Below the pieces are notes generated by a model, which saw only the letters and a program-made list of their open reading frames with translations, was not told where the DNA came from and ran no database searches. Position numbers and translations under genes: made by a program. 64,000 nt of DNA from an uncultured virus (IMG/VR IMGVR_UViG_3300037517_002797) (taxonomy: Duplodnaviria; Heunggongvirae; Uroviricota; Caudoviricetes): IMG/VR virus record IMGVR_UViG_3300037517_002797; one strand, given 5' to 3'. The first letter of the stretch is position 1, and the number at the start of each line of letters is the position of its first letter. Below are positions 19,395 through 56,385 of this stretch, piece by piece.

Positions 19395-19400
19395 AAAGCT

Positions 19401-28140: not shown

Positions 28141-28494
28141 ATGTCTGCTGGTATTCATCACATTTCAATTGAGCAAGGTGCAACATTCACGCAGGTAATG
28201 ACGTGGAAGATTAGCGACGTGGTTGTAAACCTTACTGGATACACCGCACGACTAAAAGCAAGGTCAACAGTTGGAAGCAGAAATGTTCCGTCAATGTCAC
28301 TTACTAGTGCTGTTGGTGGAGACATTACTCTTGGCGGCGCTGCTGGAACAATTACCATTAGCCTAACCGCTACTGAAACTGCAGCACTAAACCCTGGAAA
28401 GTACACTTACGACCTCGAGCTTCAATCCTCGGGAGGAGTTGTTACCCGTCTGCTGAAAGGCAATTTGACGGTTGTCGCGGAAGTAACATACTAA
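28141..28494 (+). CDS. virion structural/adaptor-like beta protein
   Basis: IEQGATF...NLTGYTAR...YDLEL...RLLKG pattern typical before fibre genes. Confidence 0.6.
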
Positions 28495-29186: not shown

Positions 29187-29234
29187 TCTTCAGCAACTTC
29201 TGAGTCAATTTAGGTTAATACCTGCAGCGGAAAA

Positions 29235-29876: not shown

Positions 29877-29981
29877 AAGCCTTATAAAATAAGGGCCAAA
29901 ACCATATAACCTTAACCTTAATGGTATACAATCTGACTTGTACATTAACAGCAGCAAACCGTTGCTAGATAAGGGTTTCGT

Positions 29982-35477: not shown

Positions 35478-35552
35478 ACTGTTGGTATTATTCTAAGGTA
35501 GTTTTAAGCACAGAAACGCCTGTGCGCGATTGCGCATGGACTGGAGTTGCAC

Positions 35553-40700: not shown

Positions 40701-42139
40701 ACCTAAACAACAACAGCAACATCTCTAACCCGGACCTTGGTATTGCTGGTAACTACAACGATGGCACGTACAAACACACTGGTCTTTTCCGTGACGCAAC
40801 AGATGGTAAGTGGAAGTTCTTCCAAGACTACACTCCAGAGCCTGCAAGCCCGATTGATACAGCAAATGTGTCATACGCGGCAGCACCACTGGTAGTTAGC
40901 ACATTGGACACTACTGCTACTACTGGAACCGCGCCAATCACTGTTATGTCAACAACGCTTGTAGCGAACTTGAACGCCGATCTTCTTGACGGTCAAAGCA
41001 GTGCGTATTTTGCGCCAATAGGCAGCCCAACATTTACTGGAACAGTGACACTGCCAACAGGAACTGTCACAAGCGCAATGATCCTTGATGGAACAATTGA
41101 TAACGCCGACATTAGTACCTCAGCTGCAATTGCTCATACAAAGCTTGCATCCACAACTGCAGCGTTCGTGTTAATGGGCAACGCAACTGGCGTGGTCACT
41201 GGAACTGCAGTCAGTGGTGACGTTACAGTTACAGATGCTGGAGTAACTGCGATTTCATCTGGAGTAGTTGTAAACGATGACATTAATGCATCAGCGGCGA
41301 TTGCACTAAGCAAACTTGCAACTGGCACTGCTGGAAACATTCTGGTTTACAACACAACAGGCGTTCTTACTTCTGTTACAGAGTCAGGCGACGTAACAAT
41401 TTCAGATGCTGGTGTCACAGCCATCGCGTCTGGAGTAATTGTTAATGCAGATGTAAACGATTCAGCAGCGATTGACTTTAGCAAACTTGCAACTCTTACA
41501 AGTGGAAATATCTTGGTAGGTAGCGCAAGCAACGTTGTCACGTCAGTAGCAGTCAGCGGCGACGTAACAATCGCAGCTAACGGTAACGTGCAGATTGCGT
41601 CAGGCGCAATCGTCAACGCAGACATTAGCGCTTCGGCCGCAATTGAGCTCTCAAAACTTGCAACTAGTACTGCTGGAAACATCATTGTGTACGATGCTTC
41701 AGGTGTTCCGACCGCGGTTACTGAGTCTGGTGACGTAGTAATTGACTCATCTGGCGTTACATCAATTAGTGCTGGAGTAATTGTCAACGCGGACATCAGT
41801 GCTACAGCAGCCATTGACCTCGGTAAACTTGCTGATGTCTCGACGAGTGCTCAGACCGCGAGCTACACTCTTCTACTTGCGGATAAGAACAAGGTCGTTG
41901 AAATGAGCGTTGGCTCTGCAAACAACCTTACAGTTCCAACAAACGCAAACGTAGCATATCCACTTGGATCGCAGATCATGGTTCTTCAGACAGGCTCTGG
42001 CCAGACAACAATTGTTGGCCAGGGTGGAGTAACAGTAAACGGTACTCCAGGGCTTAAGCTTCGCACTCAATGGTCTATGGCTACTTTGATTAAGAGAGCT
42101 ACAGATACATGGGTAGCTGTTGGAGACTTGTCAGCCTAG
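37787..42139 (+). CDS. long tail fibre protein
   Basis: [11 protein letters not shown]...[19 protein letters not shown]-terminus, short collagen, GNVT repeats, IVNADI.ASAAI repeats, C-terminal W...GDL. Confidence 0.85.
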
Positions 42140-42169: not shown

Positions 42170-42877
42170 ATGGCATCAGTAAAAGACAGTGGCGGAAAAA
42201 AGCCGAACGCACCTACGATTGGCACTGCGACAAGAAACGTAGACACTGGCGCCGTGTCTGTTGCATTTACTCCAGGTTACGGCGGAAAAAACACGCCAAC
42301 GTACACAGTTACATCAAGTCCTGGCAGCCTCACCGGCACTGGTTCTTCTTCACCAATAACTGTCACAGGTCTTACCGCAGGAACTGCGTACACGTTCGCG
42401 GTTACGGCGACAAGCAACGGAATTACTTCTGATGCGTCGGCAGCGTCTAACTCAGAAACGCCAGGAGTTAGGCCTTCTGCTCCAACAATCGGCACAGCAA
42501 CTGGAGGCAACGCTCAAGCAACTGTTGCGTACACTGCCGGTGCAGTAGGCTCTGGCGGCGTTACATACACTGCAACGTCAAGCCCGGGTGGAATAACGGC
42601 TACTGGTGCTTCCCCAATTACTGTGACTGGTCTAACTAACGGTACAGCTTATACATTTACTGTTACAGCGTCTAACGCTTACGGTTCAAACGTATCAGCA
42701 GCGTCCAACTCAGTTACTCCAGTAGCTCCGCCATATTTTCCACCGTACTTCCCACCGTACTTCCCACCCTACTTTCCTCCGTTTTTTCCACCATTCTTTC
42801 CTCCGTTCTTCCCACCGTTCTTCCCACCGTACTTCCCACCGTACTTTCCACCATTCTTTCCTCCGTTTTTTAAGTAA
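42170..42877 (+). CDS. double fibronectin type III protein with C-terminal (PP[YF]F)12 tail
   Basis: Two P.APTIGTAT...TVTGLT.GTAYTF.VTA..ASNS.TP units, then 12 tetrapeptide repeats. Confidence 0.85.
   Translation: MASVKDSGGKKPNAPTIGTATRNVDTGAVSVAFTPGYGGKNTPTYTVTSSPGSLTGTGSSSPITVTGLTAGTAYTFAVTATSNGITSDASAASNSETPGVRPSAPTIGTATGGNAQATVAYTAGAVGSGGVTYTATSSPGGITATGASPITVTGLTNGTAYTFTVTASNAYGSNVSAASNSVTPVAPPYFPPYFPPYFPPYFPPFFPPFFPPFFPPFFPPYFPPYFPPFFPPFFK
42728..42871 (+). repeat. 12 x 12-bp coding tandem repeat (PPYF x4, PPFF x4, PPYF x2, PPFF x2)
   Basis: Codons parsed directly; synonymous variation between units. Confidence 0.95.
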
Positions 42878-42898
42878 AAGTGTTGATACAATACATAC

Positions 42899-43519
42899 GT
42901 GAGCTCTCCATGGAAGATTCAGCCAGGGTACTTTGGTAACGGACCAGAAAATATCCATGTAATTGACAATTTCATCGAGTTAGATGATCTTCGTGAAATA
43001 TCTTCATTTGCAAAAACAATTACAGAGTGGTCAAACCCAAAAACTGAAAACGAGTACGCAGAAGACGGCACATGCACGTACAACGCGGCATATTGGAACA
43101 ATCGCCAATGCTCTGACACTATTCTTGCAAGAATATCTCCGCATATTTACAACTTGGTTGATAAGTACATTGACAAGATGCAAAGTTACGCCGAAGAAAC
43201 ATTCAACTGCAAGTTGACAAAACGCCCACCGTGCATTATTCGCTGGTTTCAAGGAATAGAACAAAGACCGCACGCGGACAAGCAAATGAATGACGGATCG
43301 CCTAATCCTTTTCCAGACTACGACCTAAACTCATTGTTCTACTACAATGATGACTTTGAGGGTGGAGAACTGTACTATCCAGACCATGATATTTCTATAA
43401 AGCCAAAACCAGGTCTTGCAGTTTTACACCCAGGAGACATTAACTATCTTCACGGAGTAAAAATGGTTACCGCTGGCGAAAGGTTTACAACACCGGCGTT
43501 TTACACCGTGGTTGGTTAA
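42899..43519 (+). CDS. 2OG-Fe(II) oxygenase, P4H-like
   Basis: HAD...YYNDDFEGGELY...HGV...R. Confidence 0.9.
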   Translation: MSSPWKIQPGYFGNGPENIHVIDNFIELDDLREISSFAKTITEWSNPKTENEYAEDGTCTYNAAYWNNRQCSDTILARISPHIYNLVDKYIDKMQSYAEETFNCKLTKRPPCIIRWFQGIEQRPHADKQMNDGSPNPFPDYDLNSLFYYNDDFEGGELYYPDHDISIKPKPGLAVLHPGDINYLHGVKMVTAGERFTTPAFYTVVG

Positions 43520-43545
43520 TATAGTTATACGCAAAAGGAGACGTA

Positions 43546-44205
43546 ATGAACACTGAGCACATTGGTGACCCGAAGCTTGGCATGCTGGTATATAGAAATG
43601 CACTGCCAGAAGACCTAGAAATTATTTCTCGTCTTGAAAAGACAATTGGCAGTAGCACTATAGCGCCGTTTATGTGGATGGAAGCTTTAGTCGGTCACGC
43701 GCAAAGAATGCCAGAGTACAGAGACTGCGTAGATTGCAAAATTGGTGATGTCCACCTTAGGCATTTACCTCCACAATTTGAAGAGATTAGAAACGTGTAC
43801 AACGACACGGCTGCAGCCATAAAAAATTGCTTGTCTGACTACCAATCGGGGTACAACATAAACATGCAGTACATGGAAGCGATCAATTTTATTCGCTACT
43901 CAGCAGGGCAGCACTTTCAAATTCACACTGATCACGGGTTTTCGTATACTTGCACTGTTTCGTCAATCGCGTATATAAACGACGACTACGACGGAGGCGA
44001 ACTGTGGTTTCCGTACTTAGATATTTCATATAAAGCAACTGCTGGAGACATAGTTATGTTTCCGTCAACTTACATATACGCACACGCCGCTAAACCTGTA
44101 ACACAAGGCACAAAATACTCTGCAGTTACGATGTTTGACTACAACGACCGCAACCATGACATCAAAGGCAGCCGTGATGGCGTAGCCGCACCAGCCCAAT
44201 ATTAG
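43546..44205 (+). CDS. 2OG-Fe(II) oxygenase, P4H-like
   Basis: HTD...YINDDYDGGEL...HAA.PV..GTKY. Confidence 0.9.
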   Translation: MNTEHIGDPKLGMLVYRNALPEDLEIISRLEKTIGSSTIAPFMWMEALVGHAQRMPEYRDCVDCKIGDVHLRHLPPQFEEIRNVYNDTAAAIKNCLSDYQSGYNINMQYMEAINFIRYSAGQHFQIHTDHGFSYTCTVSSIAYINDDYDGGELWFPYLDISYKATAGDIVMFPSTYIYAHAAKPVTQGTKYSAVTMFDYNDRNHDIKGSRDGVAAPAQY

Positions 44206-44224
44206 AATTTTAAGTAGAGGAACT

Positions 44225-44827
44225 ATGGAAATACGACCAGAAGAAATCCCAGTGTTAGAAGATCTTGGCACGTCGCTGTACGAGTTTGTTCTTGAAGACC
44301 TTGACTCTGGCGTCAATGTTCTTGAAAGTAACAAAGGCAAAGTAACAATGATCGTAAATGTCACCGGCGAGTGCGCTAACTCGGCGCAGTACATTCCTAT
44401 TCAATCTCTTTATGACGAGTATAAAGACCGAGGATTCGAAGTAGTGGCTGTGCCAAGCACAGATTTTTGCGAGCACGCTTACGGTGAGTTTACGGATTCA
44501 AACGCAAGTCCTCAAAATATGAGAGATCATATGAAAAAACTGTATAAGACAGATCTTCCGTTTTCAAAGCTAACTGCAACTGTTGAAAACTCAAAGACGG
44601 GGCTTGACATACACCCATTGTATGAAAAACTTCAAAGTATTGGCGGCCCAATGCAAGGAAACTTTGAAAAAATCATTATCTCAAAAAATGGAAAAAAGAT
44701 ATTTAGGTTCTGCAATTCAGATCTTCTTAACTTAGGCTACGACGCCGGCGACAGATCAATTGACGCAGACACAGCGCTAATTTTTATCAAGGAAGCAATT
44801 GAAACGCTACTTAATGAAGAAGAGTAA
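44225..44827 (+). CDS. glutathione peroxidase-like protein (atypical)
   Basis: KGKV..IVNV..EC, GFEVVA.P..DF, HPLY..L, GNFEK. Confidence 0.75.
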   Translation: MEIRPEEIPVLEDLGTSLYEFVLEDLDSGVNVLESNKGKVTMIVNVTGECANSAQYIPIQSLYDEYKDRGFEVVAVPSTDFCEHAYGEFTDSNASPQNMRDHMKKLYKTDLPFSKLTATVENSKTGLDIHPLYEKLQSIGGPMQGNFEKIIISKNGKKIFRFCNSDLLNLGYDAGDRSIDADTALIFIKEAIETLLNEEE

Positions 44828-44878
44828 AGAAGCAGGCATCTTAAGACACAGTAAGACTAGCGAAAGGTACATCATCAA

Positions 44879-45583
44879 ATGACAAAAGTACGGCTAACTC
44901 GGGGACATCAAAACGCACCATTAGTTCAGCAGTCTCGTATCAAGCGAGATTGGATGGACGATACTTACAATAAGCATGCGTATCAATGCCTGCCAATGAC
45001 AGTAGCAAATGTCAGCGGTTGGGAGCTTGTGCTGGACGAAGATCTTGTGGTTATTTGGGAAGGTGGAAATAGTGTTGTCAAAGTGATAAGCGGAGGAACG
45101 CAAAAAGACAGGCAAGTTGCCCACCCGTCTATGATTGGGATTATTTCTCTTAGCACCGGCTGGGCTATCAACACTGAAGAAGGTTATGCGACTTGGGTGA
45201 CTGGCTCACCAAACTACTTCATTGATGGCGCAGTTCCTCTTGCGGCAACTATCCCAAGCAGTTGGTGGCCTGACGAAGTTCAAATGAATTGGAAGATTAC
45301 CAAGGTCAACGAGCCAGTGACTTTTCCAGCAGGTACTCCATATTGTTTTTTCACTATCTACCCAGAAAATCTTTTAGAGTCTGTAGAATTTGAAGTAGGC
45401 AATATCTGGGATAAGCCAGACCTTATTGAGTCTCGGGTCAAGTATAGCGATATGAAGATGAAGAACCAAGAAGACAATCCATGGACTTGGACTAAAGGTA
45501 TCAAAACAGGGCTAGACGCAGACGGTAACCGCATCGGGCCAACATTTACTGGACTACCAAAACTGAATGAACCGCATGCATGA
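44879..45583 (+). CDS. DUF6065-like protein
   Basis: RDWMD.T..KHAY.CLP...AN..GW, G.PN, MNWK.T. Confidence 0.7.
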   Translation: MTKVRLTRGHQNAPLVQQSRIKRDWMDDTYNKHAYQCLPMTVANVSGWELVLDEDLVVIWEGGNSVVKVISGGTQKDRQVAHPSMIGIISLSTGWAINTEEGYATWVTGSPNYFIDGAVPLAATIPSSWWPDEVQMNWKITKVNEPVTFPAGTPYCFFTIYPENLLESVEFEVGNIWDKPDLIESRVKYSDMKMKNQEDNPWTWTKGIKTGLDADGNRIGPTFTGLPKLNEPHA

Positions 45584-46142
45584 GTTGCTAACTTTAATGG
45601 CAACGCATGCCTATGTCTCTCAAATTGACGGCATTGACTATGGCGTAGTGACAGCGGAAGTTCTTCAACAGGACTTGGTGTTTTCAAGAGGCTATGGTTT
45701 TCGCGTGTATCCAGACTCAAATGAATGCCACAAGTTGCGAAACTCTATTGAACTATTAGCAAATACTGTTCTTCCATTGCCAGTAAACCTAACAGACATA
45801 TGGGCGACTACGACTAGCAAGGGCGAGTCGGTTTCATACCATTCACACCACTCCAACACTCACATGAGACCAGAAGAATATTGGAGTGGAGTTGTCTACA
45901 CATCTTCTGACGACAACTCAGCCGAGTTGGTTTTACATTCATTTGGCTATAACAGGATTGAGTCAATGACCAAGATAAAGCCAGAGATTGGCAAAGTAGC
46001 GTTTTTTAACTCGTATGTTCCGCATTTTACAACTATGCACCAGTCTGACACGCCTAGGGTTGCAATCAGTTTTAACTTAAAGCCAAAAAATCCAAACATC
46101 ACAGAGGTGCCAGACATGGGTGTGTACAGAGGTGACAAGTGA
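45576..46142 (+). CDS. putative 2OG-Fe(II) oxygenase, HxH type
   Basis: YHSH...SGVVY...P..G....F.SY.PH...R..ISFN. Confidence 0.75.
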   Translation: MHELLTLMATHAYVSQIDGIDYGVVTAEVLQQDLVFSRGYGFRVYPDSNECHKLRNSIELLANTVLPLPVNLTDIWATTTSKGESVSYHSHHSNTHMRPEEYWSGVVYTSSDDNSAELVLHSFGYNRIESMTKIKPEIGKVAFFNSYVPHFTTMHQSDTPRVAISFNLKPKNPNITEVPDMGVYRGDK

Positions 46143-46330
46143 ATGACTTAGCAAAAGAACAGGCAAAGCAGTATCTAAAAAAGTCTATAGACACGCTGCA
46201 ATCAATTCTAGGAGTAGATGCGTTTTCTCTTACTGAAATTCCTGTAGACAAGTCTTCACAGATGTACGACTCATACTATTGCTTAATGCATGAAGTAGCT
46301 GCCTACAGAAAGCTACTTGATAATGAATAG
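46139..46330 (+). CDS. small hypothetical protein
   Basis: GTGA coupling in operon. Confidence 0.6.
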   Translation: MNDLAKEQAKQYLKKSIDTLQSILGVDAFSLTEIPVDKSSQMYDSYYCLMHEVAAYRKLLDNE

Positions 46331-46796
46331 TGAAGAAATGGTTGGGCAAGATCCGACTGACTACCCATCATTAGACAACAATGGCGTAGTTTGGGACAAA
46401 GCTACTGAAACATGGGTGGTTGAAAACGGTTCTTCAGCTCATTGTCATTTGTACGGTCCTCCAGTAGAAAGACTCCCTCGTGGAGAAACTCATCTTGTAT
46501 GGGACAGCCCGACAGATGTTGCGCATTCAGACACAGTAAAAAAGTACGATAGTGGCGCAGACTACGAGTACCACAAGACACAGTTGCACGCGCACATGTA
46601 CGTGTTGGGATTCTCTGACGATGAGATTGACCGTCTTACTGTAGATGACCTAATTCATAAGGTCCGTGAAGTGTACAAGTACAAGCAAGTTGCACACGAG
46701 CTGGCAGGCCAAGTTTACATCAAAAGAAAAAACATTGCTATGGTTAGAGGTATCCGAAGAGCAAATCACAGAATTCAGGTTGCCAGCCGTGGATAA
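46323..46796 (+). CDS. hypothetical protein
   Basis: Overlap-coupled ORF. Confidence 0.65.
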   Translation: MNSEEMVGQDPTDYPSLDNNGVVWDKATETWVVENGSSAHCHLYGPPVERLPRGETHLVWDSPTDVAHSDTVKKYDSGADYEYHKTQLHAHMYVLGFSDDEIDRLTVDDLIHKVREVYKYKQVAHELAGQVYIKRKNIAMVRGIRRANHRIQVASRG

Positions 46797-47517
46797 CAGC
46801 TATAACATTCCACGAATTGTTGATGCATTCTCTAAAACTCAAAGTTACGTGCCGTCATTTCCTGGCAAGTACTACAAACTATCTTCTACAATTATGGCTG
46901 AGTACACAGCGGCACTGGACTTTGACAGAAGAAACATAGCCACGGGAGGTGTTGACTTGTCAATATTTCCATGGGAAATGTTTGCCGATACAAATGAAAG
47001 AACTTTGCGTACATATACGCTTTCGCAAGTAATACAAGATCTTTTGTATCAACTGCAACAACCAAAGTCAGTGTTGATATGCGGGCCAGACATGTCTAAC
47101 ACCCGCGTAATTCAATGCTGCGAAGACGCAAATGTTGATGTTACTCTACTAAACACGGTTTTCCTTGACTACTTCGAGCAATGCGTAAAGACAATAAACC
47201 CAAGATTTGCAAGTGTCAACTATGATGTTCTTACCATGCAAGATCTAGAGTCAGGCAATTCAAAAAAGTTTGATTTGATTGAACTATGGCATAACCAAGT
47301 AGATACGACGTTTACAAACATTCATTACTACACGTCTTTACTGAACGACAAAGGCATGCTTTTGATCAATGGAAGCTCAGACTGGGCGTTTCTCTACGAA
47401 AACGAGACAGACGCACACCCAATGTTTGACCTGCACGACGAACTAAAAAGCGATGAATCTTTGTACGTGTACCACATTCCTTTGCACTATGGATATACAG
47501 TGGCGGTTAAGAAATGA
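46789..47517 (+). CDS. degenerate Rossmann methyltransferase-like protein
   Basis: PKSVLICG, KFDLI, LLN..GMLLI; start inferred at GTG 46789. Confidence 0.45.
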   Translation: MDNSYNIPRIVDAFSKTQSYVPSFPGKYYKLSSTIMAEYTAALDFDRRNIATGGVDLSIFPWEMFADTNERTLRTYTLSQVIQDLLYQLQQPKSVLICGPDMSNTRVIQCCEDANVDVTLLNTVFLDYFEQCVKTINPRFASVNYDVLTMQDLESGNSKKFDLIELWHNQVDTTFTNIHYYTSLLNDKGMLLINGSSDWAFLYENETDAHPMFDLHDELKSDESLYVYHIPLHYGYTVAVKK

Positions 47518-48500
47518 AAGTCATAGATAACTTCATAACAGATCAGCAGCTTCTTAGCGCGGTTAGAAGCGATAATTCTTTCTTCCCCGAGTCAATGGGT
47601 GACGGCCAAAGAATAGCAGAGCAACTAAACTCGTACCACTACCAAGATTCTAGTGTGTACTCTCCGTACTTGTTCTGGGACGGTTGGTGGAAAAGCCCAG
47701 CGAACACGCTTAAGAAAAAAGTAATTCGTGCGATATGGGAAAATAACCTTGATTATCAGTTAGAAGATATCGTTGGTTTTGAGTACTGGACCAGGACTTT
47801 TGGCCCTGGGCAGGTACTAAGTCCTCATGTTGACGAAGACACATTTCTTTATGAAGAAAGCAAGACTTTCAGTGGGCCAATTGCTGGCTGCGTGTACTAC
47901 GGAGAACATAACCATGACGGAGGTTTTCTAGAGATTCATAAGAGTGTTCTCACTGACGGCGAGAAAAACGCGCTCGAAAGAGAAAATATTGAATCATTGT
48001 TTTCACCAACTGAAGATCTTGAAAGAATTGCGTACAGAGGAAACCGCTTAGTCATCTTTGACACTGGCCACGTTTTGCACGGAACAACTCCTGCTAAGTC
48101 GGGGACACGTCAGGTAATGGTTGTAAATGTTTGGCATAAAAACAATCCTCCCCGCGGGCTTGCGCTAAACAAATTTGCGTACGAAGCGCCAGACCAGACT
48201 CAAGCAATTGAGCCTACTCAATTTTCTCTTAAAGTAAGATCTCCTCTTGGCACGGACGACTACAGTGTCGAGATGACTGGAAAAACAACCGCGGCAATTA
48301 CACACTACAGAGGCCGAGTAGATATTGAAGACGTTAGTTTTGATGGAACGTCATTTTGTGCTTGTTTTGCAGTAAGCACACCAATGACCACAGATGTTGA
48401 CTTAAGATTTACTGTTGATCGGTCCACCGGGTTTATAGCAGGGACTGCTGATATTGGAAAGTTTATGTCAGTTTCAATTGAAGGACTGGTAGTTCAATGA
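47514..48500 (+). CDS. 2OG-Fe(II) oxygenase with extra C-terminal beta domain
   Basis: GFEYW, PHVDED, NRLVIFD...LHG...R...VN.W. Confidence 0.8.
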   Translation: MKVIDNFITDQQLLSAVRSDNSFFPESMGDGQRIAEQLNSYHYQDSSVYSPYLFWDGWWKSPANTLKKKVIRAIWENNLDYQLEDIVGFEYWTRTFGPGQVLSPHVDEDTFLYEESKTFSGPIAGCVYYGEHNHDGGFLEIHKSVLTDGEKNALERENIESLFSPTEDLERIAYRGNRLVIFDTGHVLHGTTPAKSGTRQVMVVNVWHKNNPPRGLALNKFAYEAPDQTQAIEPTQFSLKVRSPLGTDDYSVEMTGKTTAAITHYRGRVDIEDVSFDGTSFCACFAVSTPMTTDVDLRFTVDRSTGFIAGTADIGKFMSVSIEGLVVQ

Positions 48501-49126
48501 CATCTATTTTTGAAGTACCGATTAGTTCAATAAACGGAGACCAAGATATTCTTAGCACTGTAAAAGGCAAAGTATGCCTATTTGTGAATATCGCAACAAA
48601 ATGTGGGTACACGCCGACGTGTAGCCCTATGTGGTCGTTTGCTAGAACTTCACGGCAGCTATGGGAACTTCAACAACTTCACGAAATGTACTACGACAAA
48701 GGATTTTCTGTCGTAGGACTTCCATGCAATCAGTTCTATGGAATGGAGCCATCTTCAAACAAAGAAATAGCCGAGTTCTTAGAAACAGCGTACCCGTTTG
48801 TCACGTTTCCAGTCACCGAAAAAGTAGACGTAAATGGAGCAAATGAGCACAGGATCTTTACAATACTCAAAGGAACCGAGACACGGCGGTCTGACGACAG
48901 CCCAGCCGACACCAGCGCCGCAGCAATGGCCGGGCAAAATCTTGCCAACCAAGCAATTGCAAGAGTGCCAGGCAACAATGAAAAGTTTATTGTCGGTCGT
49001 GACGGGCAACAACTCATGAGATTTAGCTACAGAAACTGGCCACTTGCAGAGGTATCCCTAACTAACGAGAGCGAGTGGACAATAAAAGGTGCAGTAGAAA
49101 TGCTAACTTCTGACTACAAAAAGTAG
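48497..49126 (+). CDS. glutathione peroxidase-like protein
   Basis: KGKV.LFVNIATKCGYT, GFSVVGLPCNQF, FP..EKVDVNG, EKFIVGRDG. Confidence 0.85.
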   Translation: MTSIFEVPISSINGDQDILSTVKGKVCLFVNIATKCGYTPTCSPMWSFARTSRQLWELQQLHEMYYDKGFSVVGLPCNQFYGMEPSSNKEIAEFLETAYPFVTFPVTEKVDVNGANEHRIFTILKGTETRRSDDSPADTSAAAMAGQNLANQAIARVPGNNEKFIVGRDGQQLMRFSYRNWPLAEVSLTNESEWTIKGAVEMLTSDYKK

Positions 49127-49138
49127 TAGAATACGCTT

Positions 49139-50065
49139 ATGTTTGATCCAAAGCCTGAGCATCTTGGCAGCGGCGTTGTTGTGTTTAGGAACGCCCTAGA
49201 AAACATTGATCATAGTTTTCTAATTCCTCATCTTTCCGCAATACATGAAGGAATTGTTGAAAAAGAGTACACAATTATTCACGACGAAAATGGCGAACCG
49301 CTGTACGCAATAAATAATTCCGGTCATAGGTACGAAATTGACGGTATTTACAAAGTAAATAGACTAACTGGTTTTGCTACAGATGATAAAGAAAGTAAAG
49401 CCTACAAGTTTTTTGCTTCATGCGAAGATGTTATCTACGACTGCCTCATAAGATACATCGAGCTATTTCCACTAATTCTTCCATCTCTATGGTGGAGAGA
49501 ACAGGGGCACGTTGCGGCCTACCGACCAAGCGGCGCAATGGGCTACCATTCTGACAATGATGTAAACTACAGCCCAGGCGCAGTCCCTGATATGCAATTA
49601 GCGACACGACACGTTGTGGGTGCTCTTCTGTACTTTAATGACTCAGTAGAAGAAAATGCAGACCTCACTAAGTACGAGTATGTTGGTGGAGAGTTAGACT
49701 TTAAGTACCTTGGAATTACATACAGGCCAAAGAAAGGAGACGTGTTGATGTTTCCATCTAACTACATGGCGGTTCATGAAGTCAAAGATGTGTACGAAGG
49801 CACACGATACGTCTACATTGCTTATTTTTCTCAAGGTTCTCCAGACCATGAGCGTGGAATATCTCCTCTTGAAGATTTAGATTTTCTCTGTTCAGGTCAA
49901 GTTTGGATGCCAGATCTATTCAATGACTATCATTTTTACTTAAAAAATAAATACGGAGAAGACTTAATAAACTACCCGCACCTAACTCTTCCTCTTGGAA
50001 GAACGCTAACTAGCAGCGGCACGACAGAAGAAGTTCTTAAGGAAAAGAGAAAAAATGCTAAATAA
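49139..50065 (+). CDS. 2OG-Fe(II) oxygenase, paralogue group A
   Basis: HSD...YFND...GGEL.F...FPSNY..HEV...R. Confidence 0.88.
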   Translation: MFDPKPEHLGSGVVVFRNALENIDHSFLIPHLSAIHEGIVEKEYTIIHDENGEPLYAINNSGHRYEIDGIYKVNRLTGFATDDKESKAYKFFASCEDVIYDCLIRYIELFPLILPSLWWREQGHVAAYRPSGAMGYHSDNDVNYSPGAVPDMQLATRHVVGALLYFNDSVEENADLTKYEYVGGELDFKYLGITYRPKKGDVLMFPSNYMAVHEVKDVYEGTRYVYIAYFSQGSPDHERGISPLEDLDFLCSGQVWMPDLFNDYHFYLKNKYGEDLINYPHLTLPLGRTLTSSGTTEEVLKEKRKNAK

Positions 50066-50915
50066 CAATGTAGAAGCCGAGCACCTTGGTGGAGGCGTCG
50101 TACTGTTTCGCAATGCAATATCTTTTGACGTCGCCTGGGCAGTTCAGTTTGCAGAAGAACAAATTAGCAAAGAACGTGAAGAAATGTACACTAAAGCTGT
50201 AGACCCAGAAACTGGAGAACCAGCATACTTAAATAAAAGCGGATACTACTTTAAAGCATACGGTGTTGACATAATGCCTCGCAGGGGTTCGCAAATACAC
50301 GGAACAAGCCGCGACGATGTTCGCGATTTTATTGAAGCTGTCGAGCGCGCTAAAGACGAGTATCTTTTAAAGTACTTCGTGCTGTTTCCAATTGCGTATA
50401 AAAATGTGTGGTGGAAAGTCAAAGGTCACCTTGTCTCGTATTCCACACAATACGGAGGAAGCTTTTTAGGCCCGCACTCTGATACAAGTGCCGACTACGC
50501 TTACGGCTATCCGCACCCCGGCAACCAACTCGCTACAAGAAATAGTGTTTCTTGCGTCGTGTACATCAACGATGATTTTGATGGTGGTCACCACTACTTT
50601 AATTACTTAGACATAGACTACAAGCCAAACTCAGGCGACATTCTTATGTTTCCAGCAAACTACATGGCTTCACACGAAGTAACACCGATCATTAACGGAA
50701 GCAGATACTCGTATCTTGGTTGGTATGCGCAGGGTTCTCCAAATAAAGAAGTTAATGAGCATATAGTAGATCCAGCAACTGATCCAGAACTTGCTAAAAC
50801 GGCAACAAACGTGTACATGCCGACTCTTCGCGAAGACTTTAAAAATTATTTAGACAGTATAGACCATGACAAATCTTCTCACGCCTATCAATTAGTAGAA
50901 AGAATGAGCTCATGA
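50055..50915 (+). CDS. 2OG-Fe(II) oxygenase, paralogue group A
   Basis: HSD...YINDDFDGG...HEV...R. Confidence 0.88.
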   Translation: MLNNNVEAEHLGGGVVLFRNAISFDVAWAVQFAEEQISKEREEMYTKAVDPETGEPAYLNKSGYYFKAYGVDIMPRRGSQIHGTSRDDVRDFIEAVERAKDEYLLKYFVLFPIAYKNVWWKVKGHLVSYSTQYGGSFLGPHSDTSADYAYGYPHPGNQLATRNSVSCVVYINDDFDGGHHYFNYLDIDYKPNSGDILMFPANYMASHEVTPIINGSRYSYLGWYAQGSPNKEVNEHIVDPATDPELAKTATNVYMPTLREDFKNYLDSIDHDKSSHAYQLVERMSS

Positions 50916-51676
50916 ATGCTGTTCATTTAGGAAACGGAATTGTGTATTTTAAAGACGTGTTTACCTTTGACAACGACTACTTTAGTAGTTTTGTTGAAAG
51001 ACTGCACGACACTGATAGGCGCCACGAACAGGTAGTTGCTAAAGAAGACGAAGCGTACGTGCTTACAGAGGGCGGATACAGGATCACAAGAAATGATGCA
51101 GACTACGCGCCGCGCCGTTTTTCTAAACTGACTAACTTAAATCAAGAAGATAAGAAGTTTATTGAAGAAGTTAGAGATGCAATCCACTCGTGTGTAGTTG
51201 AGTACTGCAAGGTTTTTCCAATAGTGATTGAAAACATAAGATGGGCAACAAACGGATACGTCATCAAATATGAAAACGGTCAGTCAATTGGCGCCCACTC
51301 TGACTGCAATATTGCATACGCCGAAGATGGAGTAACTCCTGTTAACTCGTTTCCAATGCAAAACATTCTTACTTGTGGGCTGTTCTTTAATGACGATTTT
51401 GAAGGCGGCACAGTGTCATACAGGCCGTGGGGCATTTCAGTAAGACCAAAGCCTGGATCAGTTCTTATATATCCTTCTTCATACATGGGTTGCCACGAAG
51501 TTGCCGCAGTCACTGAAGGCACACGGTACGCATACCTGTGTTGGTACGGTCAGGGACCAATAAATAGCTCAGACCATCGTATGACAGATCAAATAAAAAA
51601 AGAAACTGGGTACGAAACAGTCAATACAAATTCAGCTCAAAGATTTGTCCCAGTAGGGGCGATCAAGCTTTCTTAA
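50912..51676 (+). CDS. 2OG-Fe(II) oxygenase, paralogue group A
   Basis: HSD...FNDDFEGG...HEV...R. Confidence 0.88.
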   Translation: MNAVHLGNGIVYFKDVFTFDNDYFSSFVERLHDTDRRHEQVVAKEDEAYVLTEGGYRITRNDADYAPRRFSKLTNLNQEDKKFIEEVRDAIHSCVVEYCKVFPIVIENIRWATNGYVIKYENGQSIGAHSDCNIAYAEDGVTPVNSFPMQNILTCGLFFNDDFEGGTVSYRPWGISVRPKPGSVLIYPSSYMGCHEVAAVTEGTRYAYLCWYGQGPINSSDHRMTDQIKKETGYETVNTNSAQRFVPVGAIKLS

Positions 51677-52694
51677 TTTCTTGAGCAGTGTGACTTTGCC
51701 CGTATTGCGTTACACATCTGTTTTGAAACACTGGGTTAATCCCATGCTCAAGTTCTGTAGCATTTAAAGACCAAATGGAGTACTGAGACTTGCAATACAT
51801 TTCGTAGTCGTCGTAGATACTGTCAAACCACACAGGTGGACACCATTCTCTACTTTCTGAGCTTTCTACTATGTTGATGTGCGCGCTTTCGTCGTTTCCA
51901 CCCTGGCCAAAAAATGTTAAGTATGCATACCGCGTACCGCCATTCATTTTTGTTACGCCGTGTGCTGCAATGTAGTTTGTAGGAAAAAAGATGATGTCAC
52001 CTTTTTTAGGAATGTACTCTACATTTGCGTGTGGAAATTTTAGATGCCCTCCTGAAAAGTTTTCTCCATCGAGCTCTTCTTGCGTTTCTACTGAGTCATT
52101 AAAATACGCAAGAGCCCCTGCGGTCTGCCTCGCGGCGACCATACCTCGTGGCATATAGCGAACTCCACCAGTGACTTTATAGTTTGTGTCATTGTCTTGG
52201 TGCCATCCTAAGACTCCACCGCTGTCGTATCGAAGAACGTGCCCCCGTGTCTTCCACCACAGGCTTCCTACGACAAGAGGAAACATATCAATATACTTAA
52301 TAAGGCACTTGTATATTGAGTCTTCTAGCCCAACAAAATAGTCTACAATATCTTTAGGTGTTTCGTAAACAACTGGAGCAAGAATTCGCGTAGGCGCGTT
52401 TGGCACATCTTCAAGACGGTACCTAAACCCATCTTCGTTTATTCCGTACTCAACTCCGTCTTCTCCAACAGCGTATGACCATCTATCTTTGCCAATTTCA
52501 TATGCTCGACGATCAATGTAGTCTAAAGCGTACTTTTCTACGCTAAAGGCATCGTGAAATACAACCAAACCACTGCCTAGGTCTGTGTATTGAAGCTTAC
52601 TTATCTCTAAAAGCTCAGCTTCTCCAATTTTTGGAGTAGACGGCAGCACTGGCCATTTGTCAAAGTCAGCAGGTGGTTCTGAAAAATTTTGCAT
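51663..52694 (-). CDS. 2OG-Fe(II) oxygenase, paralogue group A, inverted
   Basis: HQD...YFND...GG.L.F...HGV...R; AGAGGA RBS. Confidence 0.88.
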   Translation of the reverse strand: MQNFSEPPADFDKWPVLPSTPKIGEAELLEISKLQYTDLGSGLVVFHDAFSVEKYALDYIDRRAYEIGKDRWSYAVGEDGVEYGINEDGFRYRLEDVPNAPTRILAPVVYETPKDIVDYFVGLEDSIYKCLIKYIDMFPLVVGSLWWKTRGHVLRYDSGGVLGWHQDNDTNYKVTGGVRYMPRGMVAARQTAGALAYFNDSVETQEELDGENFSGGHLKFPHANVEYIPKKGDIIFFPTNYIAAHGVTKMNGGTRYAYLTFFGQGGNDESAHINIVESSESREWCPPVWFDSIYDDYEMYCKSQYSIWSLNATELEHGINPVFQNRCVTQYGQSHTAQEIKKA

Positions 52695-52760
52695 ATGTCC
52701 TCTATTCAATACTATACGCTGTTACCAATTTTACACTGGTTATCGAGATAATATGAATGA

Positions 52761-53606
52761 ATGGCAATCAAAAAGAGCAAAACTTCTAGCAAGGCTACGC
52801 CAGACGAGACCGGCAAAATAGTCATATCAAATGAAGAGCTTAAAAGCTGGAATCTGTATATCGCAGTTCCATGCTATGACAACACTGTTACAGAGCCGTT
52901 CATGATGTCACTTATAAAGTCAATGCTGACATTTACAAATATAGGTCTAAAGACAAGTGTAAGCACTTTAGCGGATTCACTGATCTCAAGGTCAAGAAAT
53001 ATGCTTGTAGCAAAGTTTATGGCAAATCCAGAGTACACTCATTTGCTTTTTATTGACTCAGATATATCGTTTGAGTCCGACTCTATTCTCAAGTTGCTGT
53101 GGCACAATAAAGACGTAATTGCTGGAGCGTACCCGGTAAAAGAAATAAACTGGGAAAAGACAGAAGCTATGGTACGCGAAGGAATTCCGATAAGGCAGGC
53201 AGTAAAAGAATCTGCACGGTTTGCTTTTAGCGCAATAGAGCCTGGCCAAACAAAAGTAGACATCTCAGATGGAGCAATATCTGCGTACGACCTTGGTACT
53301 GGATTTATGCTTATTAAGCGAAGCACAATTGAAAAAATGATTGAAGCATTCCCTGAACTTAAGTATGTAGATGACACTGGCGGACTGAGTTCTGAAGAGA
53401 AAAAGTACTCGTACAATTTTTTCAATCCGCATATTGACTCTCGCCAGCGGTATCTTTCAGAAGACTACGCTTTTTGCAGATACTGGCAGCAACTCGGAGG
53501 AAAGACGTGGCTTGATCCTTCAATTGATTTAGTGCACACTGGCCGGTTCAAGTACAGTGGAAGCGCCAATTCGTACGTCAATAGTATTATGACAATGCCA
53601 AAATGA
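52761..53606 (+). CDS. GT-A fold glycosyltransferase-like protein
   Basis: IAVPCY, SLISRSRN, FIDSD, GTGFMLIKR, SEDYAFC..W. Confidence 0.75.
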   Translation: MAIKKSKTSSKATPDETGKIVISNEELKSWNLYIAVPCYDNTVTEPFMMSLIKSMLTFTNIGLKTSVSTLADSLISRSRNMLVAKFMANPEYTHLLFIDSDISFESDSILKLLWHNKDVIAGAYPVKEINWEKTEAMVREGIPIRQAVKESARFAFSAIEPGQTKVDISDGAISAYDLGTGFMLIKRSTIEKMIEAFPELKYVDDTGGLSSEEKKYSYNFFNPHIDSRQRYLSEDYAFCRYWQQLGGKTWLDPSIDLVHTGRFKYSGSANSYVNSIMTMPK

Positions 53607-55342
53607 AAATTGCAGTCTACACAATAGCACTAAATGAAGAGCAGTTCGTCGAGCCGTGGTTCAATTCTGCTAAAAACGCTGACTATTTGCTAATTGCGGA
53701 TACAGGCTCAACTGATGGCACAATTGAAAAGGCACGAAAGCTTGGCATTAATGTTGTACAAATTTCAGTAAAACCTTGGAGATTTGACGACGCTAGAAAC
53801 GCATCACTTGCGCTGATACCACCTGACATTGATATATGCATTGCGCTTGACATGGACGAAGTCTTTGTTGAAGGCTGGCGAGATCATCTAGAAAATATGC
53901 CAAAGGAAACAACAAGACCACGCTACAAATATGTGTGGAATTGGAACCCAGACGGAACAGAAGGCCTGGTGTACGGCGCGGATAAAGCGCATGCACGCCA
54001 TGGCTACCGCTGGGTTCACCCAGTGCACGAGGTGCTTTCACCAACTAACGATGAATTTCAAGCTTGGATTGGTATGGAAGTTCATCATCATGCTGATTCT
54101 TCAAAGTCCCGCGGACAGTATCTTCCTCTGCTTAAGAAAGCTGTTGACGAACGCCCGAATGACGATAGAAACGCTTACTACTACGCTCGTGAATTATTCT
54201 TCTATGGAAAGAATGACGAGGCTGTAACAGAATTCAAGCGTCATTTAGCCCTACCGACAGCGCAGTGGCGGCCAGAGCGAGCAGCGTCAATGCGGTACTT
54301 AGCAAAGATAGAACCGCACGAGGCAGAGACGTGGCTTCTTCGCGCTGCGGCAGAGGCGCCCGACTCCCGTGAGCCGTGGGTTGAACTTGCGTTTCATTAC
54401 TACACGGCAGGCAAGTGGGAAAACTGCGTGTCATCAGCAAGGCGCGCGCTAACAATTAAAGAAAAGCCGCTGGTATACCTTAATGACGCATCTGCATGGG
54501 GAGCTCTTCCTCATGACCTTGCGGCAATCTCGTCGTGGAATATTGGAAACAAACACGAGGCTATTTCGTATATACGAGACGCGCTTAAGTTTGAACCAAA
54601 CAACGAAAGACTGCAGTCAAACCTTGCGATGATGCTTCGCGAGACGTATCCTGTGCAGGTTACAGCAGTGATTCCAACAAAGTCAAACGTGGCCGGTGCG
54701 TTAGCTGTAATTGAAAAGCTGCAAAACGACCCACAGGTTATTGAAATTGTTGTGGTTGCAGACGGACCAAATGCGCATGCAACATACAAGAAAGTTCTTA
54801 AAGATAAAGAAAAAGTAACGCTAAAGAAAGTTGACTTAGCTGTTGGAATTCACGTCATGTGGAACATCGGAATTGCTGTGTCTGCCAGGAACAACACCGC
54901 AACGGCCTTTGTAAACGACGATGTAGTTCTTGAAGATAACTGTATTGGCTCACTTGCCTCGCTTCTTGAGTATGACAAGAGTCTTGGACTAACATCTCCG
55001 CTGTATGACTATAGAAAGTTTACTGACATAACTCAGGACGTGACATCAACAAGCAACGGCAGAACTGATGGCAGTGGCGGACTTGGTGGATTTTGCATGG
55101 TGCTTCCAGAAGACCTGACAAAAGAATGGCGCTTCGACGAGTCAATGAAGTGGTGGTACGGAGACGACGATGTACTTATGTGGTGCAACACAACAAAGAA
55201 GCGCCGCGGAGTACTGACGTGCATTACAAGATGCAGTGGAAATCGGTCGCTCACGATTGCAACCGATCCTCCACCTAACTTTAGAGAAGTAGTACAAGAC
55301 GATAAGCTTAAGTTCTACATCAAATGGAATTTGGAGGCGTAA
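53603..55342 (+). CDS. GT2 glycosyltransferase with TPR repeats and second GT-A domain
   Basis: IALNEE, DTGSTDGT, FDDARN, LDMDE, VHE; TPR helices; C-terminal VNDD...WYGDDD. Confidence 0.85.
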   Translation: MKIAVYTIALNEEQFVEPWFNSAKNADYLLIADTGSTDGTIEKARKLGINVVQISVKPWRFDDARNASLALIPPDIDICIALDMDEVFVEGWRDHLENMPKETTRPRYKYVWNWNPDGTEGLVYGADKAHARHGYRWVHPVHEVLSPTNDEFQAWIGMEVHHHADSSKSRGQYLPLLKKAVDERPNDDRNAYYYARELFFYGKNDEAVTEFKRHLALPTAQWRPERAASMRYLAKIEPHEAETWLLRAAAEAPDSREPWVELAFHYYTAGKWENCVSSARRALTIKEKPLVYLNDASAWGALPHDLAAISSWNIGNKHEAISYIRDALKFEPNNERLQSNLAMMLRETYPVQVTAVIPTKSNVAGALAVIEKLQNDPQVIEIVVVADGPNAHATYKKVLKDKEKVTLKKVDLAVGIHVMWNIGIAVSARNNTATAFVNDDVVLEDNCIGSLASLLEYDKSLGLTSPLYDYRKFTDITQDVTSTSNGRTDGSGGLGGFCMVLPEDLTKEWRFDESMKWWYGDDDVLMWCNTTKKRRGVLTCITRCSGNRSLTIATDPPPNFREVVQDDKLKFYIKWNLEA

Positions 55343-55343
55343 C

Positions 55344-55868
55344 ATGCACGGCGCGGTAACTCAGTGGTTTGGCTATTCACTTAGTCAGATTGCGGCTCGA
55401 GAGAGTATAAAGAAAACTGGGAACAACGTTCTTGAGATCGGAAGTCTTGACATTAATGGCAGCATTAAGTCAATGTTCAGTGAACTTACTTCTGAAGGTG
55501 GATCATACCTTGGAATTGATCTTCAAGAAGGCCCTGGTGTAGACATTGTTGTTGACGGGGTGGCGTTTAGAAGCGATACACCGTTTGACATCATCGTGTG
55601 TGCTGAGGTATTTGAGCATACTCCAGTATGGCCGTCAATCATTGCTAATGCGTACAACCACCTTGTTCCCGGTGGATTTTTCATTGCAACGATGGCAGGA
55701 GAAGGACGACCACCTCACTCAGCTATAGATGAGAATCCAATTCGTAGTTGGGAATACTACAAGAATGTTACAGCAACAGAATTAGCGCAGTACCTGCAGA
55801 TATTCGCAGATGGCGAAGTAAACGTCCAAGACACCGATACTAGGTGCTGGGCTGTGAAGCAGTCTTAA
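55344..55868 (+). CDS. SAM-dependent methyltransferase
   Basis: VLEIGS.DING, YLGID...GPGVD, FDIIVC.EVFEH, L.PGG. Confidence 0.85.
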   Translation: MHGAVTQWFGYSLSQIAARESIKKTGNNVLEIGSLDINGSIKSMFSELTSEGGSYLGIDLQEGPGVDIVVDGVAFRSDTPFDIIVCAEVFEHTPVWPSIIANAYNHLVPGGFFIATMAGEGRPPHSAIDENPIRSWEYYKNVTATELAQYLQIFADGEVNVQDTDTRCWAVKQS

Positions 55869-56385
55869 GCTTTTTTACTTTCTTTTCTTTAGCTTTTTCT
55901 TTTTCGTTCTTTTTCTTTTCATCACGCGTTTCACGGTCAGAGTGGTACGCAGTTACGGCGTTAGCGCTAGTGCGGCTACGCCACACGAACTGGCACTCAT
56001 CACAAACTACAAGCTTCATTTTTGTCCACCGTCCGCCTTCTGGTGAGTCAGCAACAACTACCCTAAGCTTATTAGGGCGACCACCGCAATGAGGGCAGTT
56101 TGGAAATCTTTTACGTCTAACTTCTTGGCCAGTGTATGAAACGGACAATGCACGACGAAGTTCTCCTTCATCTTTTCCACCCCACACGCCATGTATTTGT
56201 TTATTTTCAAGAGCCCACTTAAGGCATTGACTTCTTACTGGACATGTGTAGCATAAGTTTTTAGCTGCGTACTTTTCTTTTGGAACTTTTGAGAACCAGT
56301 ACTTCTTAATGTGTGCGTTTTCTGGCTGTGCGCATGCGGCATCGTCCATCCACGCCACGTCGCTCAAGCCTCCAGGCTTTTTCAC
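55840..56385 (-). CDS. whiB: WhiB family regulator with C-terminal zinc ribbon
   Basis: WMDDAAC, AKNLC.TCPV...C, GVWGG; then CPHC...CDEC and basic tail. Confidence 0.85.
   Translation of the reverse strand: MKKPGGLSDVAWMDDAACAQPENAHIKKYWFSKVPKEKYAAKNLCYTCPVRSQCLKWALENKQIHGVWGGKDEGELRRALSVSYTGQEVRRKRFPNCPHCGGRPNKLRVVVADSPEGGRWTKMKLVVCDECQFVWRSRTSANAVTAYHSDRETRDEKKKNEKEKAKEKKVKKLKTASQPST

Follow-up and report, generated by a model that had tools for sequence, protein, structure and literature searches.

In a 64,000-nucleotide stretch of DNA from an uncultured tailed lake virus (IMG/VR record IMGVR_UViG_3300037517_002797; hereafter the window, meaning the whole stretch that was analysed), a gene whose product ends in twelve proline-rich PP[YF]F units lies directly ahead of a block of modification genes, among them eight Fe(II)/2-oxoglutarate (2OG) oxygenases and a DUF6065 protein (Table 1). 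Comparison with related phages confirmed that this arrangement of repeat and enzyme block is real and far beyond chance, and repeat and enzymes were found together in two phage clades. That the repeat carrier is a candidate substrate of the enzymes is well supported by these sequence comparisons, and hydroxylation of its repeat prolines by the cassette is, in our judgement, probable.

The C-terminus of the carrier reads VA-(PPYF)4(PPFF)4(PPYF)2(PPFF)2-K-stop, that is, exactly 12 PP[YF]F units over 48 residues; the corresponding DNA has a period of 12, with 10.8 copies and 83% matches. A first-pass annotation of the window, made from the sequence alone, had described an FN3-FN3 protein with 12 such units closing the fibre module and an enzyme block starting about 20 bp later. 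Translation and Pfam confirm the former, and the measured distance is 21 bases, from the carrier stop to position 42899. The block comprises 16 further genes, 15 of them on the strand of the carrier. The fibre protein directly 5′ of the carrier has homologues ahead of the carrier in nearly all related loci.

Searching IMG/VR with the carrier protein gave 80 loci, a set biased towards the tail since PPYF patterns were among the queries. PPxF-tailed FN3 homologues with at least 1.5 kb of downstream sequence were followed by an oxygenase in 59/59 cases, and those with at least 6 kb by DUF6065 in 37/37. Tail-less FN3 homologues had neither an oxygenase nor DUF6065 in 18/18 cases (loci of 5.6-20.7 kb); five records with tail-less homologues were examined, three of them rated complete, and two of these three (41.4 and 40.6 kb) are without any PF13640 or PF19541 gene. 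The reverse search was unbiased, 80 loci having been fetched with DUF6065 alone (L081-L159 examined). An open reading frame (ORF) rich in PPxF (at least 5 PP.F in 60 residues) was present upstream of DUF6065 in 34/34 loci with at least 8 kb of upstream sequence, in 44/45 with at least 6 kb, in 50/56 with at least 4 kb and in 55/69 with at least 2 kb. The sole miss at 6 kb or more, L084, is the twin of a locus with its carrier about 9 kb upstream.

Proline-rich ORFs of any kind, defined as dominant ORFs in which a 40-residue stretch has 14 Pro or more, were tallied across related loci totalling 2.5 Mb. Up to 9 kb upstream of DUF6065 there were 121 in 1.0 Mb, against 23 in the remaining 1.5 Mb, corresponding to densities of 12.1 and 1.5 per 100 kb. 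Of those 23, thirteen are PPxF carriers on loci that stop short of DUF6065 and ten are carriers of second cassettes, so that none is unrelated. With the same filter, proline-rich ORFs stood beside the cassette in 34/34 loci of the window's clade (clade 1, at least 8 kb upstream) and in 14/15 of a second clade (clade 2, at least 3.1 kb upstream). The filter missed three short true carriers (L135, L136 and L168), and it is not perfectly specific, because the one annotated proline-rich ORF of the closest published relative found, the lake metagenome-assembled Actinomycetia phage DSL-LC01 (OQ999401), owes its proline to an (AP)n linker within a protein of the replication region. DSL-LC01 has the fibres on one side and the genes for the glycosyltransferase with tetratricopeptide repeats (TPR), WhiB and those that follow on the other, with carrier, oxygenases and DUF6065 all absent; a YHYH-domain protein and a tryptophan halogenase (17004-21077) occupy the site of the carrier and oxygenase block. 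Co-occurrence in related genomes, the check that had been suggested with the first-pass annotation, strongly favours the link (34/34, 59/59, 18/18 and clade 2).

The repeat, rather than the protein that carries it, is the conserved element. Among 76 distinct PPxF-rich ORFs, 46 place the repeat on two to four FN3 domains and 30 on small carriers, the N-terminal parts of which (36-87 residues) are of at least three unrelated kinds. One carrier group has the six-residue unit [GSA]PP[GAT]FF, and most PPxF-rich ORFs end in F-K-stop. The combination of a variable N-terminal part with a constant C-terminal repeat resembles the leader/core layout of RiPP-like precursors. In the INPHARED collection the FN3 part of the carrier gave a single partial match, which is unannotated. 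As a separate observation, the F-K-stop ending is missing from some small carriers (L099/L100, about 6740-7160; L101; L103), in which ...PPCFG... or ...PPGFGGP... extends beyond the repeat.

A second cassette occurs in some clade-1 phages about 10 kb upstream (L018, 168-2560; also L022, L028, L069 and L010), ahead of a large fibre gene. It opens with an FN3 protein in which a Cys-rich domain and a likewise Cys-rich C-terminus are combined with (SPPP)n, poly-P or (PT)n; an uncharacterised ORF of 157-179 residues comes next and then, except in L010, an oxygenase of its own of about 200 residues.

The complete 110-kb phage G002 represents the second, distant clade. PF13640 and PF19541 are each represented there by a single gene, and the two genes overlap by 11 bases; the phage's tail-less FN3 proteins lie in a different region. 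Upstream of the pair are a protein with a fibre C-terminal domain, an FN3 protein with P12, (V/A)TPPP x8 and a Cys-rich end, two small ORFs and a PF11397 'Glycosyltransferase (GlcNAc)' gene (E 9.9e-38). The DUF6065 of G002 is 28% identical to that of the window and, used as query, retrieved 23 loci. A proline repeat lies directly upstream of the ox1-like and DUF6065 genes in 18 of these, the other five having only 235-3009 bases of upstream sequence. The carriers (83 to 844 residues) are unrelated, and their repeats comprise (A/V/T)TPPP, poly-P of 25-30, PPPPSF, PPPPYF, PPVF, PPPY, ATPPPPII, VTPP and EPTP. By BLAST label, the PF11397 N-acetylglucosamine (GlcNAc) transferase is present in 4/23 loci at 69-100% identity. 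Because proline is the only constant of the repeats that accompany the enzymes, the comparison favours Pro rather than Phe/Tyr as the primary target. A 74-residue Cys-rich protein with a weak DUF6171 match (E 1.3e-4) also lies between the proline-rich carrier and the ox1-like gene in this clade (L160, 10781-11005, and L163-L183), homologues being BLAST-labelled in 14/23 loci.

All eight oxygenases of the block were identified through Pfam, as the first-pass annotation had counted them; its further claim of intact Fe ligands holds strictly for seven, which show HxD...H with an Arg or Lys about ten residues past the second His in the alignment; the PF13759 member ox3 has H-x-H as its first metal motif. 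Seven of the eight reach the PF13640 cut-off (27 bits) with 27.1-47 bits, ox1 (27.8) and ox4 (27.1) marginally. The eight genes lie within 10 kb and belong to at least three subtypes (ox1/ox4, ox2/ox5-8 and PF13759).

H125, D127, H185 and R195 of ox1 are invariant in 20 homologues. Against all PDB sequences, the profile of these homologues matched prolyl 3-hydroxylase 1 (P3H1; 8k0e) at E 3.6e-12, and further matches were PiuC/PKHD hydroxylases (about 4e-9), the Bacillus anthracis prolyl 4-hydroxylase (P4H; 7e-9) and lysyl hydroxylase LH3 (7e-6), with Tet/JBP enzymes at E 0.02-0.4 only. In ox2, H127, D129, H180 and K190 are invariant in 20 sequences, and the Lys lies ten residues past the second His, a spacing that we take to be that of collagen P4H. 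The first PDB match of the ox2 profile was the B. anthracis P4H (3itq/5hv0) at E 1.5e-8, and PDB entry 5c5t ('prolyl 4-hydroxylase') was matched by both profiles (ox1, E 1.6e-3; ox2, E 7e-4). Weak matches of ox6 were to P3H1, PiuC and P4H (E 0.006-0.03); by sequence, ox3 gave no informative PDB relative and ox4 none. Because the ox1 and ox2 profiles match P3H1, Bacillus P4H and LH3, with Tet-like entries so much weaker, the core oxygenases belong by sequence to the collagen-type protein hydroxylase branch, which fits, without proving, a protein substrate. Enzymes acting on small molecules or nucleic acids had been named beforehand as the outcome that would refute such a substrate; ox1 and ox2 fall with the collagen prolyl/lysyl hydroxylases, away from nucleic-acid or obvious small-molecule families. 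Hypermodification of DNA by Tet/JBP-type enzymes with subsequent glycosylation was set aside, there being no Tet_JBP family match and no Tet-like PDB entry better than E 0.02.

A search of INPHARED with ox1 returned 7 records (cyanophages and marine viruses) at 24-48% identity. Assignment of ox1 to the NCBIfam 'FlmC family 2OG-Fe(II) oxygenase' was dropped, as it scored 32 bits against a cut-off of 240; the paper on the flagellin glycosyltransferase FlmG speaks of FlmC, where it is named, as a cytidylyltransferase-like protein (PMC7591256).

The structural model of DUF6065, at a predicted local distance difference test (pLDDT) score of only 72, suggests a dUTPase-like fold. Alignment with nine dUTPases gave VIA-align Z values of 9.3-8.0 over 112-133 residues, and Foldseek returned dUTPases at E 1e-5 with a template modelling (TM) score of 0.6 on the target, at an identity of 8-18% in the structural alignments. 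No dUTPase family was matched in Pfam or NCBIfam, and no PDB dUTPase was found by profile at E <= 10; a functional dUTPase was rejected, since the fold fits but the sequence family and motifs do not. Cys37 is invariant.

The PF19541 profile finds 1488 representative clusters at E <= 1e-3. The fusion scan covered 34 of the 35 listed relatives of at least 350 residues, and the partners were PF13640 in 7, Cupin_8/JmjC in 6, PqqD in 2 and none in 14, with SapC, a UDPGT-like piece, a helix-turn-helix domain, an Arm DNA-binding domain and a sulfotransferase fragment once each. In 7/7 of the PF13640 fusions the oxygenase half is closer to the ox1 type than to ox2. These fusions make DUF6065 a recurrent partner of protein-type hydroxylases. 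Pfam found no PqqD, an RRE-like recognition element, in the window, and INPHARED held no DUF6065 relative.

Taken together, we propose that the phage encodes, in the FN3-FN3-(PP[YF]F)12 protein, a substrate of its own on which a cassette for post-translational hydroxylation acts. An ox1-type prolyl-hydroxylase-like oxygenase working with DUF6065 would form the core, joined in this clade by the second P4H-like enzyme, ox2, and these three would hydroxylate prolines of the repeat, which is expected to be polyproline-II-like. Additional hydroxyls could be placed by ox3-ox8 at other positions or residues; sugars and methyl groups may then be added by the block's glycosyltransferases and methyltransferases. 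The GPx-fold (glutathione peroxidase) proteins might, speculatively, clear peroxide from uncoupled oxygenase turnover. The outcome would be a modified, stiff, hydrophilic appendage, most likely on or near the fibres because the carrier gene closes the tail-fibre module. A fuller version, which we hold to be doubtful, is that the fibre apparatus of lake phages bears a polyproline-II appendage that is hydroxylated and perhaps also glycosylated or methylated, with marks that differ between the paralogues: 3- and 4-hydroxyproline and, as a possible addition, hydroxylated Phe/Tyr that the catechol O-methyltransferase-like protein of the block then methylates, as in mussel foot or extensin chemistry. 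DUF6065 would there act as a substrate-presenting or catalytic partner.

It is unlikely that the oxygenases act instead on other proteins, such as the phage's collagen-like fibres or host translation factors and ribosomal proteins, with the repeat protein serving a separate structural role. In bacteria, EF-Tu, ribosomal proteins and collagen-like peptides are substrates of P4H-family enzymes, the ox1 profile has PiuC/PKHD-type hydroxylases among its best PDB matches, and the many paralogues suggest many targets. Collagen-like fibre genes do lie directly upstream in the window, but collagen-like ORFs are found upstream of the cassette in 8/34 clade-1 and 5/15 clade-2 loci, against 34/34 and 14/15 for proline repeats, and they occur without any oxygenase in 4/10 control loci and in DSL-LC01. 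A host target, for its part, would leave the association of enzymes and repeat unexplained.

A small-molecule or non-ribosomal-type tailoring cluster, whose product would be a new or modified metabolite in the infected cell, the repeat gene being a mere neighbour, we consider quite improbable. Its precedent is the array gp41-gp54 of Synechococcus phage Syn9, which has no proline-rich partner; Iyer, Abhiman, de Souza and Aravind (2010; PMC2938197) described there 10 dioxygenases in tandem, together with a Cys protein of dUTPase fold and two tryptophan halogenases, and proposed secondary-metabolite synthesis. The tryptophan halogenase at the same site in DSL-LC01 recalls those of Syn9, the catechol-methyltransferase-like fold and the other methyltransferases would suit small-molecule tailoring, and so would the fusion of DUF6065 to SapC (1/34) and the occurrence of UDPGT-like and sulfotransferase-like pieces. 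Yet Pfam finds no non-ribosomal peptide synthetase, polyketide synthase, ATP-grasp enzyme, halogenase or transporter in the block, and the best PDB relatives are protein hydroxylases. Moreover, repeat and enzymes co-occur in two clades despite changing carriers and repeat types, and they are jointly absent from relatives.

That repeat and enzymes are unrelated passengers of a hypervariable island by the fibre genes, sharing ancestry only, is very unlikely: all loci come from related lake phages with conserved order, and promoter and terminator scans gave nothing above shuffled expectation, leaving co-transcription without support, but the pairing persists at 28% DUF6065 identity with other carriers, repeats and enzyme counts, all 23 proline-rich ORFs beyond the 9-kb zone are also carriers, and the second cassettes pair another Pro-rich FN3 protein with an oxygenase of its own.

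Several observations weigh against hydroxylation of the repeat by the cassette. The counts derive from related phages with conserved gene order and near-identical contigs and are not independent events; independent support comes from the joint absences, from the exchange of carriers and from the second clade. A four-residue repeat would seem to need far fewer than eight to fifteen oxygenases. A clade-2 correlation in which ox2-type enzymes track aromatic repeats was dropped, as second cassettes have an ox2-like gene after (SPPP)n, poly-P or (PT)n. Stand-alone bacterial DUF6065 genes had no conserved oxygenase neighbour and lay among unrelated housekeeping genes in the 6 annotated of 80 alphaproteobacterial loci. 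Syn9 gp32-gp61 reach at most 7 Pro in 40 residues, with no proline-rich ORF, and no proline repeat is near two extra PF13640-like oxygenases of the window itself (phrog_61; 14157-14771 and 14781-15659). The proline-repeat link is therefore shown in these lake phages only, and the oxygenases at 14157-15659 may have a separate function, since no repeat accompanies them. Finally, the chlorovirus PBCV-1 has a viral P4H active on Pro-rich peptides (original work by Eriksson et al., 1999, as cited in PMC7019647), and the account given there leaves its role for the virus unestablished and reports that hydroxyproline was not detected in virions.

Further genes of the block were largely as the first-pass annotation had listed them. 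Families or fold bear out a DUF6065-like gene, two GPx-like genes, a GT2-TPR-GT protein and methyltransferases, whereas the GT-A enzyme is weakly supported and the methyltransferase at 46666..47517 is recognised by fold only. Both GPx-fold proteins keep the active-site Cys, as read off the sequence, and protein A has a homologue as best match in 64 of 159 loci. No Pfam, NCBIfam or PHROG match was found for the 159-aa ORF. For the neighbouring methyltransferase-fold protein, which has no Pfam match, Foldseek with a model of pLDDT 70 gave 3tr6, 3ntv and SafC (5lhm) at E 2e-8 to 7e-8 and a TM score of about 0.5; its Gly-rich S-adenosylmethionine (SAM) motif is poorly conserved, and we treat its predicted likeness to catechol O-methyltransferases as a lead for aromatic chemistry, no more.

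Homologues of the GT-A candidate lie between fibre genes in other loci, adjoining small PPxF carriers; with the PF11397 enzyme of G002 it aligns only around the DxD region (pairwise E 0.005). The block's glycosyltransferases have no PDB relatives by sequence. Residues 1-341 of the GT2-TPR-GT2 protein are 61% identical to the DSL-LC01 glycosyltransferase, and the tie of this gene to the repeat is weak because DSL-LC01 has it without the cassette. Its layout of TPR and glycosyltransferase is shared with FlmG, in which, as described in PMC7591256, a TPR part joined to the glycosyltransferase binds the protein substrate.

Table 1. Genes of the repeat-enzyme block and its flanks (positions in the 64-kb window)
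Feature	Position	Strand	Evidence
Collagen-like tail fibre protein, upstream of carrier	35547..37787	+	GXY repeats in translation; PHROG tail fibre families, e.g. phrog_6320 E 4.9e-68
1450-aa tail fibre protein, collagen-like, directly 5′ of carrier	37787..42139	+	phrog_8745 tail fibre E 1.2e-31
Repeat carrier, candidate substrate; FN3-FN3 and C-terminal (PP[YF]F)12-K	42170..42877	+	235-aa ORF; two fn3 stretches, PF00041 E 4.7e-11
ox1: P4H/P3H-like 2OG-Fe(II) oxygenase, putative core enzyme	42899..43519	+	PF13640 E 5e-6
ox2: P4H-like 2OG-Fe(II) oxygenase, putative core enzyme of this clade	43546..44205	+	PF13640 E 5e-11
GPx-fold thiol peroxidase-like protein A	44225..44827	+	PF00255 GSHPx E 6.8e-12; NF007900 E 1.5e-16, below cut-off
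DUF6065, predicted dUTPase-fold partner, cassette core	44879..45583	+	PF19541 E 5.6e-43, 147.6 bits (cut-off 26.6)
ox3: PF13759-type 2OG oxygenase	45567..46142	+	PF13759 E 2.1e-9; TIGR02466 E 6e-8
159-aa ORF, conserved beside next gene	46317..46796	+	homologue is best match in 28 of 159 loci
Methyltransferase-fold protein, nearest cation-dependent catechol O-methyltransferases; start codon uncertain	46666..47517	+	Atlas features 0.92 to Methyltransf_3/24 clusters
ox4: 2OG oxygenase with C-terminal extension	47514..48500	+	PF13640 E 8.3e-6; HVD...H...R
GPx-fold thiol peroxidase-like protein B	48497..49126	+	PF00255 E 1.2e-26; NF007900 E 5.3e-30, below cut-off
ox5: 2OG oxygenase, ox2-related subfamily, N-terminal HLGxG-V-FRNA motif	49139..50065	+	PF13640 E 1.4e-8; HSD...H...R
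ox6: 2OG oxygenase	50055..50915	+	PF13640 E 5.2e-12
ox7: 2OG oxygenase	50912..51676	+	PF13640 E 4.6e-9; HSD...H...R
ox8: 2OG oxygenase	51663..52709	-	PF13640 E 2.7e-9; HQD...H...R
Probable GT-A-type glycosyltransferase (weak)	52761..53606	+	phrog_1574 E 4e-39 (function unassigned); phrog_34859 glycosyltransferase E 9e-6; Anp1 E 2e-4, below cut-off
GT2-TPR-GT2 protein	53603..55342	+	PF00535 E 2.6e-10, 2 stretches; TPR families; phrog_13126 E 7.5e-121
Class I SAM-dependent methyltransferase	55344..55868	+	PF13489 E 1.6e-8; phrog_32762 E 2e-23
WhiB-family regulator	55840-56385	-	PF02467, E 8e-17

The window is part of a large tailed phage, with genes for ribonucleotide reductase, primase, endolysin, collagen-like tail fibres, a serine recombinase and tRNA-Thr. 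Its WhiB-family regulator points to an actinobacterial host; the gene runs convergent to the end of the modification block, and the protein is extended at its C-terminus, with a weak match to DUF6300 and a tail rich in Lys and Glu. A fragment of 41.6 kb (G001), in which PF13640 matches once, is the nearest record.

The two extra oxygenases at 14157-15659 adjoin a 326-aa membrane protein with desaturase-like His-box motifs (12153-13133). Further towards the start of the window, 7859-11770 encodes a 1303-aa protein without a PHROG match that combines a Thr-rich linker, a region resembling a parallel beta-helix, long acidic D/E-rich repeats and a Gly-rich C-terminus. The serine recombinase/DNA invertase (29982-30680; phrog_125 E 1.5e-40) lies two genes past a short collagen-like tail-fibre gene (28494-29186). 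An invertible fibre switch at 28494-30680 is not supported so far, because the inverted repeats around it are only weak (21 nt at 81%; 27 nt at 70%).

Among the genes of aquatic phages that lack an explanation, 2OG-Fe(II) oxygenases in several copies are some of the most common. Here a testable candidate substrate, the carrier repeat, stands beside the enzymes, and across related phages the two are distributed as an enzyme and its substrate would be. If the proposal is borne out, this would be the first case of protein hydroxylation shown for a structural module of a phage, it would provide a function for DUF6065 throughout its many clusters, and it would give phages a new means of varying their surface. 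In the fuller version, the multi-copy 2OG oxygenases of aquatic phages would at least partly be enzymes that tailor virion proteins and so diversify host recognition. Such a system could also be a source of enzymes for hydroxylating proline polymers in bacteria, with use in recombinant materials of the collagen-like or extensin-like kind.

Among known systems, the hydroxyproline-rich glycoproteins of plants and algae (extensins) offer a likeness in the polyproline-II-type repeat with aromatic residues, the P4H-family enzyme and the glycosyltransferases nearby. Extensins have Ser-Pro3-5 glycomodules and YxY cross-link motifs and pass through the secretory pathway, for which the window has no counterpart. 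The carrier tail, by contrast, is purely PP[YF]F, with no Ser, no Ser-Pro3-5 and no YxY, and no recognisable Hyp-arabinosyltransferase family (GT77/GT95) was found in the window. The extensin-like coat of the first-pass annotation thus lacks most of the defining extensin features.

The best solved relatives of ox1 and ox2, namely P3H1, LH3 and the B. anthracis P4H (8k0e, 6fxk and 3itq/5hv0), share the metal- and 2OG-binding residues with them, but identity is confined to a catalytic core of about 100-130 residues; their substrates are Gly-X-Y collagen repeats, whereas the carrier is without Gly-X-Y.

The minimal cassette of G002, a PF13640 oxygenase beside a PF11397 GlcNAc-transferase, resembles the cytoplasmic Skp1 pathway, in which a P4H is followed by a GlcNAc-transferase acting on hydroxyproline; PF11397 presumably corresponds to GT60/Gnt1. 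The Skp1 target is one proline of one protein, whereas that of the window would be a long repeat, and PF11397 is absent from the window by Pfam, being found only in the distant clade's cassette. In Dictyostelium and Toxoplasma the enzymes are PhyA and the GT60 member Gnt1, as outlined in PMC6939170, where GT60 is said also to hold enzymes acting on Thr. The G002 repeat does contain Thr.

The Syn9 array shares with the window its tandem run of diverse 2OG dioxygenases right after the tail-fibre genes. It includes, in the description of PMC2938197, a novel dUTPase-fold protein with a conserved cysteine. The window's DUF6065, with its modelled dUTPase-like fold and Cys37, may be a counterpart, but Pfam gives no support for homology, finding no PF19541 in Syn9 gp40-gp54. 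Syn9 gp49 is JmjC_2 and gp41/42 are annotated as halogenases; by Pfam the window block, unlike Syn9, has no tryptophan halogenase and no JmjC/MINA-type member.

Literature searches found no phage prolyl hydroxylation of virion proteins by title or abstract and no mention of 'DUF6065'. This agrees with the earlier statement that the system is uncharacterised in phages, although phage tandem dioxygenase arrays with a dUTPase-fold protein were described in 2010, as secondary-metabolite clusters in that treatment (PMC2938197). Cyanophage 2OG oxygenases have been discussed, in the part of PMC3037559 concerned with them, in terms of DNA repair or control of 2-oxoglutarate.

The closest viral parallel in enzyme and substrate type is PBCV-1, which likewise encodes a small P4H-family enzyme and proline-rich repeat proteins. 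It is a eukaryotic virus whose single enzyme is not adjacent to the substrates and has no DUF6065 partner, whereas the window combines eight paralogues and a putative dUTPase-fold partner with a repeat gene directly upstream.

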